The notes under the pieces are model-generated. The model was not told where the DNA came from. It saw nothing but the letters and a program-made list of their open reading frames with translations, and searched no databases. A stretch of 18,499 bases of DNA from a virus, in UHGV virus genome UHGV-0188240; one strand, written 5' to 3'. The translations under genes were made by a program, and so were the position numbers. Every line of letters starts with the position of its first letter. The stretch's first letter is position 1. Positions 6,453 to 17,964 of the stretch are shown in pieces.

Positions 6453-7295
6453 TCACTCCTGCGCCCATGAAGGCATTTCAGTTTGCCCGTAATCTTTGGC
6501 GGCAAAGTTTTCCTGCATAGCTCGCTGCTGCGGCCTCGGTTGAGATTTCCCCTTTGGAGTCTTGGGTTCAAAAATCCCCTGCCAACCACTGGCGATGCTC
6601 TGGTTTATAATTTCTTCAGGTGTATATCCCTTCTCCAGACTTCTGCTTAGAACGTTGATAGCCTGAGTGACACTTTGCTTAGACTTGATCGACTTACCTA
6701 TCTCCTTGCGATAGGTAACCCACGACAACCATGTTTCTGCTGATAACCAATCAGGCAACTCTGTTTCTAGCGGGTCGAACTTCTGAGAAACTTTTTTGGG
6801 GGATATAGGGGGTTTATTAATATTTTCTTTTGTCTTTAAAGAATGTCTTTTGTGTGTCTCTAACTTCGAGACATTGAGTGTCTCTAATTTGGAGACATTT
6901 TTTGTCTCTAACTTCGAGACAAAGTTGCTAACTTGGAGACACTTGCTGAATTGCCACGCAGATACCTCACTGTTTACACCGATTTGATTTCCATCCATAA
7001 ACAGGCAATTCATTGAAATCAGTTCTTTTTTAGCCTTGTTAACATTCTGCCTTGACAGTCCTGTTAACTGAGCAATTTGCTCATCGGCTATTCGATCTGT
7101 TTTCTTATTGAATCCATATGTTTTCCGGACGTAGGCCAGCATAACTTTCAACTGGCGAGCGGTTAAATCAGCACTTGCGATAGCTTCCAGCAGCTCGTTA
7201 GCGAATCTGGTGTAACCATCATCGATATCAGCCACTCTTCGCTCCTGTTCAACAGGTTCACTCTTCGACAGGTAAAATACTTCAGCCAGGCTCAT
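6453..7295 (-). CDS. replication initiator O-like protein
   Basis: N-terminal ADIDDGYTRF...ADLT.RQLKV...RKTYG parallels recalled lambda O; start re-placed to ATG 7295 (SD GGAGG 6 nt upstream); internal tandem peptide repeat VSKLET encoded by the ori iterons. Confidence 0.8.
   Translation of the reverse strand: MSLAEVFYLSKSEPVEQERRVADIDDGYTRFANELLEAIASADLTARQLKVMLAYVRKTYGFNKKTDRIADEQIAQLTGLSRQNVNKAKKELISMNCLFMDGNQIGVNSEVSAWQFSKCLQVSNFVSKLETKNVSKLETLNVSKLETHKRHSLKTKENINKPPISPKKVSQKFDPLETELPDWLSAETWLSWVTYRKEIGKSIKSKQSVTQAINVLSRSLEKGYTPEEIINQSIASGWQGIFEPKTPKGKSQPRPQQRAMQENFAAKDYGQTEMPSWAQE
6855..6941. repeat. replication origin iterons inside the O-like gene, with adjacent AT-rich region at about 6800-6850
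   Basis: Three near-identical 19-bp dyad-symmetric repeats TGTCTCTAA(C/T)TT(C/G)GAGACA at 6855-6873, 6879-6897, 6903-6921 and a degenerate fourth at about 6925-6941, period 24 bp; arrangement mirrors lambda ori within O. Confidence 0.7.
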
Positions 7296-7926
7296 TTCCA
7301 ACCTCCGCATCAAAGCATTGGGCTTCAAGAGACTTAACCATCACCACACTGCCATCTGTATTAATAACTATCGATGAGTTATATTTGCTTATCAGTTGCT
7401 TCGCGTAATCAATTCCGGCGCGAATAAGGAAATTTTTCACCGCAGGAAGATGACCAACTACACTACCCAGACCTTGCTCTATAAGCTCCTCATTAAGATC
7501 AAGCTCATTTTCATGGCGAAAAGAAATGAATGAGTCGTAAATTGCGTATTCTGCCGTCTCGCCATTTCTTTCAGGGCCAACCAGCGCCCTTATTTCATTT
7601 AGAGATTCAGAAAGCTCATTATCTTCAAGCTTGAAAAACTCTCGATTATCACTAAGCCTCTCTTTTGCAAAGGCTTTATGCATGAGTTTTTCATCTGATG
7701 CGGGATTATTTGAATGAAAGGCTGCTATCACCTTAAATGGCTTAGGAACGCCAGTAGAGGCTGAAATTTCTTTAGCCCTAACTTCTGGTGAATGCTTAGT
7801 CATCCCAATCTTATAAATTCCTGGCATGCACTCATTAGAAAGCACATAAACAAAGCCATTTGATTTAAAATCATCTGGCACCTTCATGCTCTTCAGAACC
7901 TGGAATTTGTCATTTTCGTATGTCAT
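7282..7926 (-). CDS. GIY-YIG-like (T5orf172-type) domain protein inserted between cII and O
   Basis: 214 aa; GFVYVLSN...GIYKIGMT followed by conserved R and E positions resembles GIY-YIG / T5orf172 fold; strong SD AGGAG 5 nt upstream; 3' end overlaps the O start by 14 nt. Confidence 0.55.
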   Translation of the reverse strand: MTYENDKFQVLKSMKVPDDFKSNGFVYVLSNECMPGIYKIGMTKHSPEVRAKEISASTGVPKPFKVIAAFHSNNPASDEKLMHKAFAKERLSDNREFFKLEDNELSESLNEIRALVGPERNGETAEYAIYDSFISFRHENELDLNEELIEQGLGSVVGHLPAVKNFLIRAGIDYAKQLISKYNSSIVINTDGSVVMVKSLEAQCFDAEVGNEPG

Positions 7927-12399: not shown

Positions 12400-12492
12400 G
12401 CACCTATAGCAGATTTGCGAGTCTGCTATGTGAGCAATGTCGCTCGTAACTAAACAGGAGCCGACTTGTTCTGATTATTGGAAATCTTCTTT

Positions 12493-12519
12493 GCCCTCCA
12501 GTGTGAGGGCAATTTTTTT
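12493..12519 (+). terminator. intrinsic terminator
   Basis: GCCCTC-cagtgt-GAGGGC hairpin followed by AATTTTTTT. Confidence 0.5.
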
Positions 12520-12531
12520 GACGGAGGATAT

Positions 12532-13500
12532 ATGAGTGAAGTAACAGATTTAGTTGTTATTGAAAAAGCAAATGCAATGACTGTATTTCAGTCTGCCGAC
12601 CAGATTGAAGAAATCCTTCAAAAGGTTGAACGTGAAGTTATGTCCTTTGTGCCTGATATCACAACGGCAAAGGGCAGAAAGGAGATCGCTTCTCTGGCGT
12701 ATAAAGTTGCGCAGACGAAAACATATCTCGATGGTCTTGGCAAAGACCTTGTTGCTGAACTGAAGGAAATTCCAAAGCTAATTGATGCCAACCGCAAGAC
12801 AGTGCGTGATCGCCTTGATGAGCTGAAAGCCAAGGCGCGCCAGCCTCTTACTGATTATGAGGAAGAACAGGCGCGGATTAAAGCCGAAGAAGAAGCTAAG
12901 GCAGCAGCTGAAGCTCTCGCAAAGCAAATTGAGTCTGACCATGAAATAGCTATTTTGATGGATCGCGAATTTGACCGCCAAAGAGAAGAGGCAAGACTCA
13001 AAGCGGAGCAGGAAAAGCGAGAGCATGAAGAACGCTTAAAAAGAGAAGCTGAAGAGAAAGCCAGAGCAGAAGCCGAAGCAAAGGCAAAAGCCGAAATTGA
13101 AGCAGCAGCAAGGCGAGAAGCAGAAGCTAAGGCCGCAGCGGAACGTGCAGAGCGTGAACGCATTGAAGCCGAGCAACGAGCACAGCGCGAAGCAAAAGAG
13201 GCAGCAGAACGAGCTGAAAGAGAAAAGCAGGCGGCAATTGAAGCAGAACGCCGAAAAGCACAGGAGGAGGCTGAACGAATCCGGCGCGAGGCTGAAGCAA
13301 AAGAGCAAGCCAGAATAGCAGAAGAAAAAAGAATCAAGGACGAAGAAGAGCGTAGAGCAAAGGATAAAGCTCACCGGAAAGAAGTAAATAACAAAATACT
13401 TGCTGACCTTATCAAGGTTGGTGCATCAGAAGATGTTGCTAAAAATATCATAACAGCCATCGTAAAAGGCGAAGTATTCGCAACAAAAATAACCTACTAA
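12532..13500 (+). CDS. hypothetical coiled-coil protein with a long low-complexity Glu/Ala/Arg/Lys-rich central region
   Basis: 322 aa from ATG 12532 (SD GGAGG); central region made of degenerate EAEAKAKAE / ERAEREK-type repeats between structured N- and C-terminal segments. Confidence 0.6.
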   Translation: MSEVTDLVVIEKANAMTVFQSADQIEEILQKVEREVMSFVPDITTAKGRKEIASLAYKVAQTKTYLDGLGKDLVAELKEIPKLIDANRKTVRDRLDELKAKARQPLTDYEEEQARIKAEEEAKAAAEALAKQIESDHEIAILMDREFDRQREEARLKAEQEKREHEERLKREAEEKARAEAEAKAKAEIEAAARREAEAKAAAERAERERIEAEQRAQREAKEAAERAEREKQAAIEAERRKAQEEAERIRREAEAKEQARIAEEKRIKDEEERRAKDKAHRKEVNNKILADLIKVGASEDVAKNIITAIVKGEVFATKITY

Positions 13501-15368: not shown

Positions 15369-15533
15369 ATGAGAGGACTTGCATACAATCCCGGCATTCT
15401 TCCGGCAGAAATGATTATTCGCCAACGCGTAAAGCCAATGCCATCGAGAGAGGAATTGCTTAAGAGAAATTCTTTTCCATCAGTGAATCAAAACAAATAT
15501 CTGAATGCTATGTGGCGGAGTGGGAAGAAATGA
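15369..15533 (+). CDS. hypothetical small protein
   Basis: 54 aa from ATG 15369 (SD AGGAA 6 nt upstream); alternative in-frame starts at 15351 and 15336. Confidence 0.3.
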
Positions 15534-16111
15534 AACAAATGTCACTAATTGAGATGGATGGTTTTCTGAAAGGTAAATGCATCCCCCGAGATTTAAAGGT
15601 TAACGAAACAAACGCTGAATATCTTGTCCGTAAGTTCGGTGAACTTGAATCAAAACTAGAAACGGCGTTGCGGGAGTGTCGTTCTGCTGGAATCACGATT
15701 GATAACCTTGAGGCCAAGTGCGCGGCGCTGGCTGTGGAGAATGCGTGGCTGAATAAATTTATCGTACAGAGTTGCTACGTGTTTGACGGCGAGCAGGGTG
15801 AACTATCTGATGCGTATATCTGCGCAATAGACGGAAGGATGCCGCAAACCCAAGTCACCGACGCTTTTTGGGATGAAGTGAAGACTGAAGCACGCAAGGA
15901 AGGCGCTTACTTTGTGGCGAACAGAATGCTGGCTGCCTGGGATGCTGGTTTTATTGATGATACTGCGAAGAACGCAGCGGATATTGCCCGGATGATTCTT
16001 ACCTCAACTGAGTTTATGGCTAATGCGCCGGAAGGCGATTTTGACCGCTCATTCTCTGATGGCGTTCTCGAAGATATCGCCGACCAGCTTCGCAAAGGAG
16101 GCAACCAGTGA
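15530..16111 (+). CDS. hypothetical protein, Ead/Ea22-like region
   Basis: 193 aa from ATG 15530 (ATGA overlap with upstream stop); track start 15512 is a GTG; acidic, predicted helical. Confidence 0.5.
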
Positions 16112-17175
16112 GCAAGATTGACTATCAGGTACTGCGTGAGGCAGCAGTAGCAATTGAAACAGTAGCAACACCTCAAAAATTGCTGGCATTTCGTATGAAA
16201 GTAACACCTCAGGTTGTGCTGGCTCTACTGGATGAACGAGATGCATTAAATGAACGCCTAGCCGAACTGGAGGCTGATTTAGCAGGGCTGGCCGAAGACC
16301 ACCAGAAAGCGACTGAGTCAATTAAGCAGGCTGATGCAGCTGTTAAGTTGGCACACGAGAAGTTTTCGGCGCTGGCGGCGGAGAATGCGATGTTGAAGCA
16401 ACGGACACAGCAACTTATCAACATCATTAGTAATACTGACAATGACTACTGCATGTGTGGTTCTGCTATGAAAGACCACGTGCACGGCGGATGTGGTTAT
16501 CCTACTGGCATGTTCGATTATTACTACAACCAGTGGCTGGAGTCAGATAACAAAACCCCAGCCACCGATGCTTTCCTGGCTGAAGTTAGGCGTGAGGCAT
16601 CTGAACCACTCCAGAAGGAAATTGAAATCCTTAATAAGAATCTGCTCATGTCTGTTGGCGATATCAGAGACCTTATTGACTACAACCCTGAAACTGGAGT
16701 TCTTACCGCGAAAGTCAACTTTGCAGGTCGTCAGGAAGGAGCAATTATTGGCTCTCAAACTTGGCAGGGCTATTACGCCTTTTCGCTGTTTGGCAAGAAG
16801 TGCTTTGCTCACCGTCTAGCATGGCTTCTACATTACGGAGAATGGCCTTCCCAGCCTATCGACCATATCAATGGCATCAAGAAAGACAACAGCATAAGAA
16901 ACCTGCGCCTTTGCTCTCTATCGCAGAATCAATTCAACAAACCAACCCAGAAAAATAACACCACTGGTGTCAAGGGGGTCTATTGGAATAAGCGCGATAA
17001 GCGATATGTAGCAAGCGTTCAATTTAACGGGAAGAAGTACAGCGCAGGGCACCATAAGGATATCGAAAGCGCAAAGGAAGCCGTTATGAAGCTAAGAGAA
17101 AAACTTGCAGGCGAATTTACTAACCATGGTGAATTCGAACTCGCCGACCAGTTACGACAGGGAGCCGCGCTATGA
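16108..17175 (+). CDS. fusion protein: Ead/Ea22-like N-terminal coiled-coil region plus HNH endonuclease plus AP2-type DNA-binding domain
   Basis: GTG start with SD GGAGG 6 nt upstream; HNH core HRLAWLLHYGEWPSQPIDHINGIKKDNSIRNLRLCSLSQNQ; AP2-like GVKGVYWNKRDKRYVASVQFNGKKYSAGHHKDIESAKEA; Cys/His cluster CMCGSAMKDHVHGGCG; N-terminus paralogous to the ORF at 17441. Confidence 0.7.
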   Translation: MSKIDYQVLREAAVAIETVATPQKLLAFRMKVTPQVVLALLDERDALNERLAELEADLAGLAEDHQKATESIKQADAAVKLAHEKFSALAAENAMLKQRTQQLINIISNTDNDYCMCGSAMKDHVHGGCGYPTGMFDYYYNQWLESDNKTPATDAFLAEVRREASEPLQKEIEILNKNLLMSVGDIRDLIDYNPETGVLTAKVNFAGRQEGAIIGSQTWQGYYAFSLFGKKCFAHRLAWLLHYGEWPSQPIDHINGIKKDNSIRNLRLCSLSQNQFNKPTQKNNTTGVKGVYWNKRDKRYVASVQFNGKKYSAGHHKDIESAKEAVMKLREKLAGEFTNHGEFELADQLRQGAAL

Positions 17176-17444
17176 GCAAATCATACATCGTTATTCAGCA
17201 GTACTGGTGGTGCAACGAGAAAGGCCATGGAGTTGAATACACGACAGACGGCGTTGACTTCGATAAGCGCGATAAGGCAATCAAGCATGGTCTGAAAACA
17301 CAAGGTAGTGATGATTTCAACATCGGCGTTATCGAAGGCGGTAAGCTTGTTTCCTTCGACTGGATGAATGAGCCAGTGGGTGAAAGTGCAGAGACACTTG
17401 CTGAAATTGCAGAAGCCATCGGTTACGAAGGAACCGCCCAATGA
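17172..17444 (+). CDS. hypothetical protein
   Basis: 90 aa; ATGA overlaps with both flanking genes; no recognised family. Confidence 0.45.
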   Translation: MSKSYIVIQQYWWCNEKGHGVEYTTDGVDFDKRDKAIKHGLKTQGSDDFNIGVIEGGKLVSFDWMNEPVGESAETLAEIAEAIGYEGTAQ

Positions 17445-17785
17445 GCAACATCGACAAACAGGCGCTGCGTGAAATCGCAGCGGCAGCAGTTGGCGCACAT
17501 GAGCGCCTTAGTGTTATGCCGCCTGATGACATTTTCGATATCTCACTGGCAGAAGGAACTCAGCTTGATGCAGATATCACTGCCTTGAACGCGCTGAACT
17601 CCGCAGCAAACCCCACTACCGTGCTGGCGCTGCTGGATGAGCTGGAAGCCGCAGAAAAGAAGACTGTCGAAATGCCAACCTTCGACGGCTATGTGCCACA
17701 CGTTGCGCGAGAACTTCAAGCGGCATTCCGCATCGCCTGTGATAACGCTGGCATCAACGTCACCGCAGCCGGTAAAGGGGAGTAA
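17441..17785 (+). CDS. Ead/Ea22-like protein, paralog of the 16108 N-terminus
   Basis: 114 aa; MSNIDKQALREIAAAA... and TVLALLDELEAAEKK parallel [15 protein letters not shown]... and VVLALLDERDALNER in the 16108 gene. Confidence 0.5.
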   Translation: MSNIDKQALREIAAAAVGAHERLSVMPPDDIFDISLAEGTQLDADITALNALNSAANPTTVLALLDELEAAEKKTVEMPTFDGYVPHVARELQAAFRIACDNAGINVTAAGKGE

Positions 17786-17787
17786 GC

Positions 17788-17964
17788 ATGAAATACGAAA
17801 TCCCGGAATCAGAAGATATTGAATGGCAGCAGGATATGCTCCGTGAAATAGACAGCGCCCTTGATGTCTTGCGTGATGAACATGAGCACGCAGAGGTAGT
17901 GGAGGAAATCATCAATGATATCACCGCGAGAATAGCATCACTCCGCGCGTACTCTGGATACTGA
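17788..17964 (+). CDS. hypothetical small acidic protein (not in ORF track)
   Basis: 58 aa MKYEIPESEDIEWQQDMLREIDSALDVLRDEHEHAEVVEEIINDITARIASLRAYSGY; SD GGGGAG upstream. Confidence 0.35.
   Translation: MKYEIPESEDIEWQQDMLREIDSALDVLRDEHEHAEVVEEIINDITARIASLRAYSGY

Follow-up and report, generated by a model that had tools for sequence, protein, structure and literature searches.

A predicted HNH-AP2 nuclease cassette in the exchangeable C-terminal slot of an Ea22-family gene of a lambda-like prophage

Domain architecture of the fusion protein

The virus genome UHGV-0188240, of which the 18,499 nucleotides (nt) analysed are called the window in the following, comprises the early region of a lambda-like prophage and carries on its plus strand a gene (16108..17175) for a protein of 355 amino acids (aa), with an Ead/Ea22-type front half and an HNH-AP2 back half. 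The presence of the two halves in one protein, which had been proposed in a sequence-only reading of this DNA, was borne out by Pfam and PHROG searches and by an AlphaFold2 (AF2) model searched with Foldseek. From the N- to the C-terminus, the protein comprises an Ead/Ea22 N-domain, a coiled coil, a linker, the HNH and AP2 domains and an Ea22-type tail, and its open reading frame (ORF) begins with a GTG start codon that is preceded by the sequence AAGGAGG, 6 nt upstream.

The Ead_Ea22 profile of Pfam (PF13935) matched aa 2-88 (16111..16371, plus strand; E=8e-9) with 36.6 bits, above the cut-off of 27, and this threshold was also passed by the 114-aa protein encoded downstream at 17441, with 64.2 bits. 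The AF2 model has a long helix of 80 residues (aa 34-113, 16207-16446, plus strand), a predicted coiled coil with a predicted local distance difference test (pLDDT) score of ~92, which includes the family motif LAAENAMLK (16372-16398, plus strand) common to nearly all HNH-bearing relatives. Next comes a variable middle part with the Cys/His-rich segment CMCGSAMKDHVHGGC (aa 115-129, 16450..16494, plus strand), which derives from the un-fused 214-aa allele described below; it was modelled as disordered over aa 114-133, with pLDDT below 50 over aa 114-132, and might bind a metal or act as a flexible tether. The scaffold is joined to the nuclease by a linker helix in the AF2 model (aa 151-179, 16558..16644, plus strand), which is cassette-specific from aa 161 (REASEPLQKEIEILNKNLL).

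In the C-terminal half, where the HNH and AP2 domains had to be sought for the earlier proposal to stand, both were found. The HNH_3 motif (PF13392) lies at aa 233-275 (16804..16932, plus strand; E=1.4e-15, 57.1 bits against a cut-off of 24.8) and contains the candidate catalytic residues D252, H253, N261 and N274, all present and at least 90% conserved in an alignment of 145 sequences that includes free-standing endonucleases; we take them to be equivalent to D74, H75, N83 and N96 of I-HmuI. The AP2-type DNA-binding domain is placed at aa 286-335 (16963..17112, plus strand) by a sub-threshold Pfam match (PF00847, E=1e-5), of which many close relatives carry a precomputed counterpart, and is supported by a fold that matches AtERF1, TEM1 and WRI1. 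The PHROG profiles divided the protein in a similar manner, with phrog_368 (Ead-type) on aa 1-168 (E=8e-41) and phrog_99, annotated as HNH endonuclease, on aa 167-351 (E=7e-66).

Since a sequence search of the PDB with the 355-aa protein gave no meaningful match, we used a structure model and Foldseek instead. The AF2 model, built on the 145-sequence alignment, had a mean pLDDT of 84.9 and exceeded 90 over aa 181-340; its layout consists of a short N-domain, the 80-residue helix, the disordered Cys/His-rich stretch, the linker helix and a compact C-terminal domain. The best PDB match of the HNH part was I-HmuI (1u3e; probability 1.00, 87 columns, root mean square deviation (rmsd) 3.3 Å, with an E-value of only 7e-3), and through this match the beta-beta-alpha-metal fold was recognised in the model. 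The AP2 part folds as a three-stranded sheet (E291-294, E299-306 and E309-316) on one helix (H319-337) and matched AtERF1 (1gcc, rmsd 1.4 Å over 49 columns, TMt 0.65, probability 1.0), TEM1 (7et5, 1.3 Å over 52 columns) and AtERF96, the matched regions of the query being deduced.

Un-fused alleles, cassette boundaries and constraint

The sequence-only reading had suggested that an un-fused Ea22-like gene might be present at this locus in related phages, and such genes were found, in the form of 214-aa alleles, in mEp213 (gp35) and CurroJimenez (Bas106_0027). Their DNA is 99% (mEp213) and 98.6% (CurroJimenez_Bas106) identical to the window up to 16585 and 16586 (codon 160), respectively, shows no similarity beyond these positions, and is again similar from 17434, the start of the next Ead-type gene. 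Consistently, un-fused proteins (P0092 and others) were 96-99% identical over aa 1-160. The sequence in between, 16587-17433, which holds the HNH part and a 90-aa ORF, stands in place of 155 bp in CurroJimenez that code for a different C-terminal module of 54 aa; as another C-terminal module was displaced, the event is a substitution rather than a plain insertion. In mEp213, CurroJimenez and Dewey, all of which are without the cassette, the flanks are 97-99% identical, so that its presence is sporadic. The earlier suggestion that an HNH-AP2 unit had landed in, or fused with, an Ea22-type gene thus holds for the fusion and for the un-fused allele, both of which are real, but not for the nature of the event, since the incoming unit was a widespread in-frame cassette, already fitted to the Ea22 family, and not a free-standing gene, and it replaced a module rather than being inserted.

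The exchange point on the 5′ side is a hinge of 33 nt (16555..16587, plus strand) coding for TPATDAFLAEV (aa 150-160), which is present in alleles with and without HNH and is ~90% conserved across genera, compared with ~81% for the whole cassette. In other E. coli prophages the same 149-aa N-terminus is continued, directly after TPATDAFLAEV, by at least nine different non-HNH C-terminal modules, one of which is the module of the gene located immediately upstream in the window (15530-16111). On the 3′ side, the junction (17134..17175, plus strand) consists of an Ea22-family tail, FELADQLRQGAAL, and of a stop codon that overlaps the next start as ATGA; this block (A-x-Q-L/I-R-K/Q-G, a few codons and the stop/ATGA) is common to otherwise unrelated neighbouring genes. 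This slot pattern matches the published picture of the Ea22 proteins, mosaic proteins in which an N-domain and a coiled coil are followed by a C-terminal domain that differs from one protein to the next (PMC7093339, PMC10834534), and which end in a conserved basic-Gly motif with a K/R-G-E terminal tripeptide (PMC7093339). The 355-aa protein ends in ...QLRQGAAL and keeps only R-x-G, the terminal tripeptide being absent.

The segment delimited in this way (16552..17175, plus strand; ~625 bp) behaves as a mobile in-frame HNH-AP2 cassette that always encodes 195 aa after the motif. Among the best 120 matches of one protein search, 76 HNH-bearing relatives were present, falling into at least 27 unrelated N-terminal clusters that are all joined to the nuclease at TP(A/S)TDAFLAEV; their last 195 residues are 87-100% identical to those of the window, and the N-termini, although unrelated, are nearly all coiled-coil-like with a LAAENAxLK motif. 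These relatives are 250-383-aa proteins annotated as HNH endonucleases; they come from one E. coli assembly and from Enterobacter, Citrobacter and Salmonella, in the last of which single sequences were present on as many as 405 and 561 contigs. The class of cassette is common in prophages of Salmonella, Enterobacter and Citrobacter, where the database label is simply 'HNH endonuclease'. One relative (P0050, 345 aa) reads past the usual stop into a Cys-rich extension of 36 aa (HHCPHCGGVGTCSERGC...), indicating that the 3′ boundary can also fuse to the next module.

At the DNA level, the cassette is 99% identical in another E. coli locus (L004), 82% in Enterobacter (L007/8), 81% in Salmonella (L009/10) and 81% in Citrobacter (L011). 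The homology begins at 16552-16555 in the E. coli, Enterobacter cloacae, Salmonella and Citrobacter portucalensis loci and ends at 17164-17179 in the three other genera, while in E. coli L004 it extends through the 90-aa ORF to 17463. The sharpness of these limits is illustrated by two 9-kb loci, Salmonella L009 (ea region) and Citrobacter L011 (nin region), which have only the 628-bp cassette in common, at 98.6% identity. In the Citrobacter portucalensis locus (L011 4001-5152), the cassette lies in the nin region after a gene for a DnaB-type helicase and before NinB, and has a small ORF and then an Ead_Ea22 gene behind it; both early operons thus contain Ea22-type modules and the cassette.

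Selection on the cassette was estimated from the ratio of non-synonymous to synonymous substitution (omega), and all values are approximate due to saturation of synonymous divergence (dS). Compared with the other genera, the whole cassette retained a protein identity of 91-92% at 80-81% nt identity, with omega of 0.02-0.04. The HNH-AP2 core (aa 181-342, 16648-17133; compared with L007, L009 and L011) was the most conserved part, with 96-97% protein and 82-83% nt identity and omega of about 0.01 at saturated dS, followed by the linker (aa 149-180; 69-81% protein identity, omega 0.07-0.23) and the tail (aa 343-355; 62-85%, omega 0.2-0.3). The neighbouring phage genes abc2 and DUF2737, compared with the Salmonella locus, had a protein identity of 74-79% and omega of about 0.3, so that the core appears from these estimates to be at least ten times more constrained than its neighbours, which for a phage accessory nuclease is unusual and in part unexplained. 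The very low omega points to a functional nuclease module under unusual constraint, and this constraint argues against a decaying selfish gene as well as against an accidental fusion.

An accidental fusion would be another account of a nuclease found in a gene whose un-fused alleles are still 99% identical: a free-standing homing endonuclease would have recently disrupted an Ea22-like gene, leaving the fusion ORF as a neutral or harmful by-product, with the nuclease translated alone from Met181, an in-frame methionine located about where the free-standing relatives start to align. This explanation is largely refuted and we regard it as very improbable. No Shine-Dalgarno sequence was found in front of Met181, which argues against a separate internal start, and the cassette is in frame with the 149 upstream codons, with no intervening stop; both facts indicate translation as a fusion. 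The reading frame and the linker helix are kept, and the nuclease is fused to a coiled-coil N-terminus, in 76 of 76 close protein relatives among the matches listed and in 8 of 8 IMG/VR viral loci, where the in-frame fusions have a stop codon overlapping the next start as ATGA, and the linker at aa 149-180 is itself under purifying selection. Furthermore, free-standing HNH-AP2 genes of lytic phages reach no more than 49% identity in the phage genome collection, and the one of phage ClaudiaMuster matches only aa ~185-342 and ends in ...NHGE. As this match stops short at both ends, the first ~32 and the last 13 residues of the cassette are best regarded as Ea22-family adaptors, the tail having no counterpart in the sequenced free-standing relative.

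Two further origins of the fusion were ruled out. An assembly chimera is not compatible with the finding that the protein is identical, and the DNA 99.9% identical, on independent contigs from separate gut-metagenome samples (P0001, 100% identical, is found on four contigs); and an intein is excluded because the cassette runs to the stop codon, leaving no C-extein, and because no intein or Hint family appeared in the Pfam results.

We therefore consider it likely that the gene consists of an Ea22-family scaffold whose C-terminal slot is filled by an I-HmuI-like HNH domain plus an AP2 domain, brought in as an in-frame cassette that was swapped at two linkers. The explanation is directly supported by the domains, the boundaries, the replaced allele, the mobility across genes, genera and genome regions, and the strong purifying selection. 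The cassette (16552-17175) would have taken the place of another C-terminal module through two recombination events, at the 33-nt hinge and at the 3′ tail/ATGA block; homology blocks of ~30 nt are of the kind usable by phage recombinases, and the gene for one of these, erf, is located just upstream. As the product of one gene in a chain of translationally coupled genes of the pL operon, the fusion protein would be produced early. Its AP2 domain may direct the HNH site (D252/H253/N261/N274) to a specific DNA sequence, which would be nicked or cut, and its coiled coil may oligomerise the protein, by analogy with lambda Ea22, which is tetrameric when full-length (PMC10834534); the bringing together of two or more HNH sites could result in double-strand cleavage.

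Neighbouring Ea22-family genes and the prophage setting

The gene upstream of the fusion (15530..16111, plus strand, 193 aa), whose start was set from the annotated relatives L001 and L005, was missed by the sequence-only reading and is, by its profile matches, a third member of the same mosaic family (phrog_614, phrog_14548 and phrog_368, the last with aa 43-199 against profile positions 92-239). It has its own degenerate junction motif, starting at 15848, and its own C-terminal module and tail. The same module occurs in other E. coli prophages behind the N-terminus that bears the HNH domain in the window (16 proteins of 219-236 aa).

Downstream of the fusion gene, the 90-aa ORF (17172..17444, plus strand; phrog_26897, no assigned function) is translationally coupled on both sides. 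It is not specific to the cassette: a 97-99% identical copy follows the HNH fusion in L004, and in phage Dewey it is found (99%) after an HNH-less gene. Small unrelated ORFs located after the cassette (window 17172-17444, L007, L009 and L011) often have ...AAQ or ...TAQ as their last residues, with ATGA and then MSNI(D/N)K(Q/R)ALRE coming next; as far as the sequences indicate, this looks like a conserved block at a gene boundary and is probably another recombination joint.

The downstream arrangement bears on the possibility that the protein is an effector similar to polymorphic toxins, in which the motif would separate an exchangeable nuclease toxin at the C-terminus from the rest of the protein, and the small ORF would encode the immunity protein to this toxin. 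The conserved demarcation motif TPATDAFLAEV, followed by many alternative C-terminal modules, and a small ORF that is always translationally coupled downstream are both in line with such a system. The downstream ORFs of the E. coli, Enterobacter, Salmonella and Citrobacter loci are, however, mutually unrelated, for which reason a dedicated immunity or partner gene was rejected at the four cassette-bearing loci, and the 90-aa ORF also follows the HNH-less gene of Dewey. In addition, the N-terminus matches Ead_Ea22 and coiled-coil-type profiles only, and no family related to delivery, and PADLOC gave no significant match, its output for defence systems being restricted to weak matches (HEase, E=0.0027, and coiled-coil noise to LmuB and DruC), with similar noise in NCBIfam. 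A toxin is thus disfavoured, and we give it hardly any weight against an exchangeable nuclease module of an Ea22-family scaffold.

The sequence-only reading had also pointed to another Ead/Ea22-type gene downstream, and Pfam confirmed it at 17441..17785 (plus strand; 114 aa, E=2.5e-17 over aa 2-79). This protein has a different, short C-terminal module and ends in KGE; over the first ~220 nt, its gene matches the beginning of longer genes in L001, L002 and L003 with 98-99% identity, and the sequences diverge beyond. The resemblance that had been proposed between its sequence and the N-terminus of the fusion protein stands for the N-domain (~50-80 aa) but not for the coiled coil, as the two proteins align only over aa 1-54 of the shorter and aa 1-78 of the longer one, with 29% identity (E=2e-4). 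A related case is a 179-aa gene of phage Dewey (L002 2521-3060, PQ850600.1), which is annotated as 'HNH endonuclease' and for which Pfam gives Ead_Ea22 only, with no HNH motif; the label was probably passed on by way of a mosaic family of proteins, some of which are Ead-HNH fusions.

The chaining of these genes by ATGA/GTGA overlaps, as described earlier, was read directly in the sequence, with GTGA at 16108-16111 and ATGA at 17172-17175 and 17441-17444. A further ATGA at 15530-15533, with coordinates mapped from annotated relatives, couples the DUF2737 gene to the gene at 15530, and the gene at 17788 does not overlap, being separated from the 114-aa ORF by a gap of 2 nt.

The minus strand of the window carries genes for Rz, lysozyme, Q, RusA, YbcO, an antirepressor, NinB, a DnaC-like protein, O and cII, and the plus strand those for a CI-type repressor, N, erf, an ssb-like gene, abc2 and DUF2737. 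The order erf-ssb-abc2-DUF2737, with the integrase downstream, places the fusion gene in the early left region after the recombination genes, as is expected of the Ea22 family. Human-gut metagenome contigs with 99.9% identical DNA run on into the integrase and then into ybhC, which is 100% identical to that of E. coli, and the locus was thereby assigned to an E. coli prophage, where it lies in the exo-xis/ea part of the pL operon; the ybhC-side flank is the attB-lambda side of the chromosome. The guanine-cytosine content of the cassette region (0.44-0.47) is slightly below that of the flanks (~0.48-0.53), with no sharp compositional signature.

Two other ORFs of the prophage were recorded. The first, of 214 aa (7282-7926, minus strand), lies between cII and O, overlaps the listed start of O by ~47 nt and contains a T5orf172/MUG113 domain (Pfam E ~1e-15); it also matches the PADLOC candidate PDC-S57 (E=4e-29) and a PD-Lambda-1 domain, and, after the fusion gene, is this prophage's second gene for a homing-endonuclease-like or defence-like nuclease. 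The second, of 340 aa (12478-13500, plus strand; 322 aa in related loci), is located between N and cIII/kil and has no Pfam or PADLOC match; an ORF of equal length, also without a Pfam match, occupies the corresponding position in an Enterobacter prophage.

Possible roles of the cassette and comparison with known systems

The dispersal of the cassette raises the question of whether it drives its own spread. In a selfish in-frame homing process, the nuclease would cut HNH-less Ea22 alleles at or near the linker DNA and be copied by repair, the fusion providing expression and a handle for oligomerisation. An HNH domain followed by AP2 is a recognised homing-endonuclease architecture, according to the passage of PMC10448857 that cites Magnani 2004, and nuclease genes are known at boundaries of genetic exchange in phages (PMC10448857). 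The patchy presence amid near-identical flanks, the occurrence in at least 27 N-terminal contexts, in four genera and in the ea as well as the nin region, with sharp boundaries at the same places, and the higher conservation of the hinge than of the whole cassette across genera are all in line with homing. On the other hand, no co-conversion tracts beyond the ~30-nt linkers were seen in the loci compared, the event was a module replacement and not the entry into an empty site, and an omega of ~0.01 (at saturated dS), with no frameshifted or decayed copy in any relative examined, does not suit the gain, decay and loss that homing genes typically go through. Homing therefore remains a tentative alternative, clearly less probable than an exchange by recombination at the two linkers: the wide dispersal with sharp boundaries fits homing, and a domesticated function would suit the extreme conservation and the lack of both co-conversion tracts and decayed copies.

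More speculative still is the idea of a 'parasitic protein domain', an intein-less in-frame homing element for which the Ea22 linker DNA would be both the cleavage target and the recombination homology. In this scheme, the coiled coil would assemble two or more nickase sites for a double-strand break, the element would be free to move from one Ea22-family paralog to another, to switch between the ea and nin regions and to cross to phages of other enterobacterial genera, and the omega of ~0.01 would stem from the need to keep recognising the linker. We think this unlikely.

The extreme protein conservation would also suit a precise binding role, in which a nuclease-dead HNH-AP2 module, co-opted as a sequence-specific DNA binder, would act without cutting, for example as a lysis-lysogeny repressor like other Ea22 proteins. 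The Ea22 proteins of lambda and of Stx phages are pro-lysogenic regulators (PMC7093339), and AP2 domains derived from endonucleases became transcription factors, as stated where PMC10448857 cites Magnani 2004. The four candidate catalytic residues are, however, all present here and at least 90% conserved in the homologs, free-standing endonucleases included, with no sign in the sequence of a loss of activity, which makes a purely regulatory module improbable compared with an Ea22-family scaffold bearing a nuclease.

Several points weigh against our preferred explanation. The AP2 score in Pfam (26.1 bits) is under the curated cut-off of 33.3, and the Foldseek E-values are weak (7e-3 to 0.3), though the probabilities are close to 1 and the rmsd values low. 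The census of relatives draws on that single protein search, and among the matches listed the exact pairing of the Pfam Ead_Ea22 and HNH domains was present in P0001 only. The HNH segment gave no nucleotide match in 50,697 phage genomes (blastn) or in 5,426 complete E. coli genomes (megablast and blastn); this instance of the cassette is rare, being absent from those genome sets, its benefit to the phage is unproven, and no close donor is therefore named. Saturation of dS leaves the degree of constraint approximate, and the nuclease activity, the oligomeric state and the target are inferred.

Among the closest known systems are the homing endonucleases of phages that combine HNH_3 and AP2 in a free-standing gene (the class of Magnani et al. 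2004; 'IPA-HNH' in Barth et al. 2023, PMC10448857), which have the same domain order, the conserved D-H...N...N residues and a patchy presence. The cassette differs from them in that, in the relatives examined, it is always an in-frame C-terminal module of a coiled-coil protein with family linkers at both ends, replaces a module rather than entering between genes, shows no decay (omega ~0.01) and is at most 49% identical to them. The structural prototype of the nuclease half is I-HmuI (PDB 1u3e), and the fold of the cassette combines an I-HmuI-like part with one that matches plant AP2/ERF domains.

Exchange of modules at conserved boundary ('linker') sequences is known in lambdoid phages. The cassette resembles such exchanges in its short conserved flanks, in the position of a nuclease exactly at the exchange boundary (cf. 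PMC10448857) and in the nearby erf gene, but its boundaries lie inside the coding sequence, at a domain junction, with the result that whole domains and not whole genes are swapped. With the Ea22 proteins of lambda and Stx phages (PF13935/IPR025153; PMC7093339, PMC10834534), the fusion protein shares the early-left region, the three-part plan, the mosaic evolution and the basic-Gly C-terminal motif, and it differs from them in having a predicted nuclease and DNA-binding module as its C-terminal domain and in ending with ...RQGAAL instead of K/R-G-E. A nuclease or HNH C-terminal domain is not mentioned in PMC7093339 or PMC10834534, and full-text literature searches found no published Ea22-HNH or exo-xis-HNH endonuclease fusion. 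A further parallel is the ShiLan domain of actinophage methylases (PMC11855218), an HNH element in a host ORF that is without a stop and is neither an intron nor an intein; the ShiLan HNH is internal and in a different frame from its host gene, whereas that of the cassette is C-terminal and in the host frame. The cassette is accordingly an example of phage module shuffling and not a new kind of system.

Annotation is affected by this mosaicism, since Ead-HNH proteins appear to cause HNH-less Ead/Ea22 genes, such as the 179-aa gene of Dewey, to be labelled as HNH endonucleases. More generally, few conserved genes of lambda-like phages, the Shiga-toxin phages included, are as poorly understood as those of the Ea22 family, whose function is believed to reside in the variable C-terminal domains. 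A predicted sequence-specific nuclease as a recurrent and strongly conserved option for the C-terminal slot offers a concrete and testable biochemical activity for an Ea22 variant, with the domain-exchange linkers fixed to the nucleotide; if the nuclease were to drive its own spread, the cassette would be a clean natural example of in-frame homing at the level of a protein domain.

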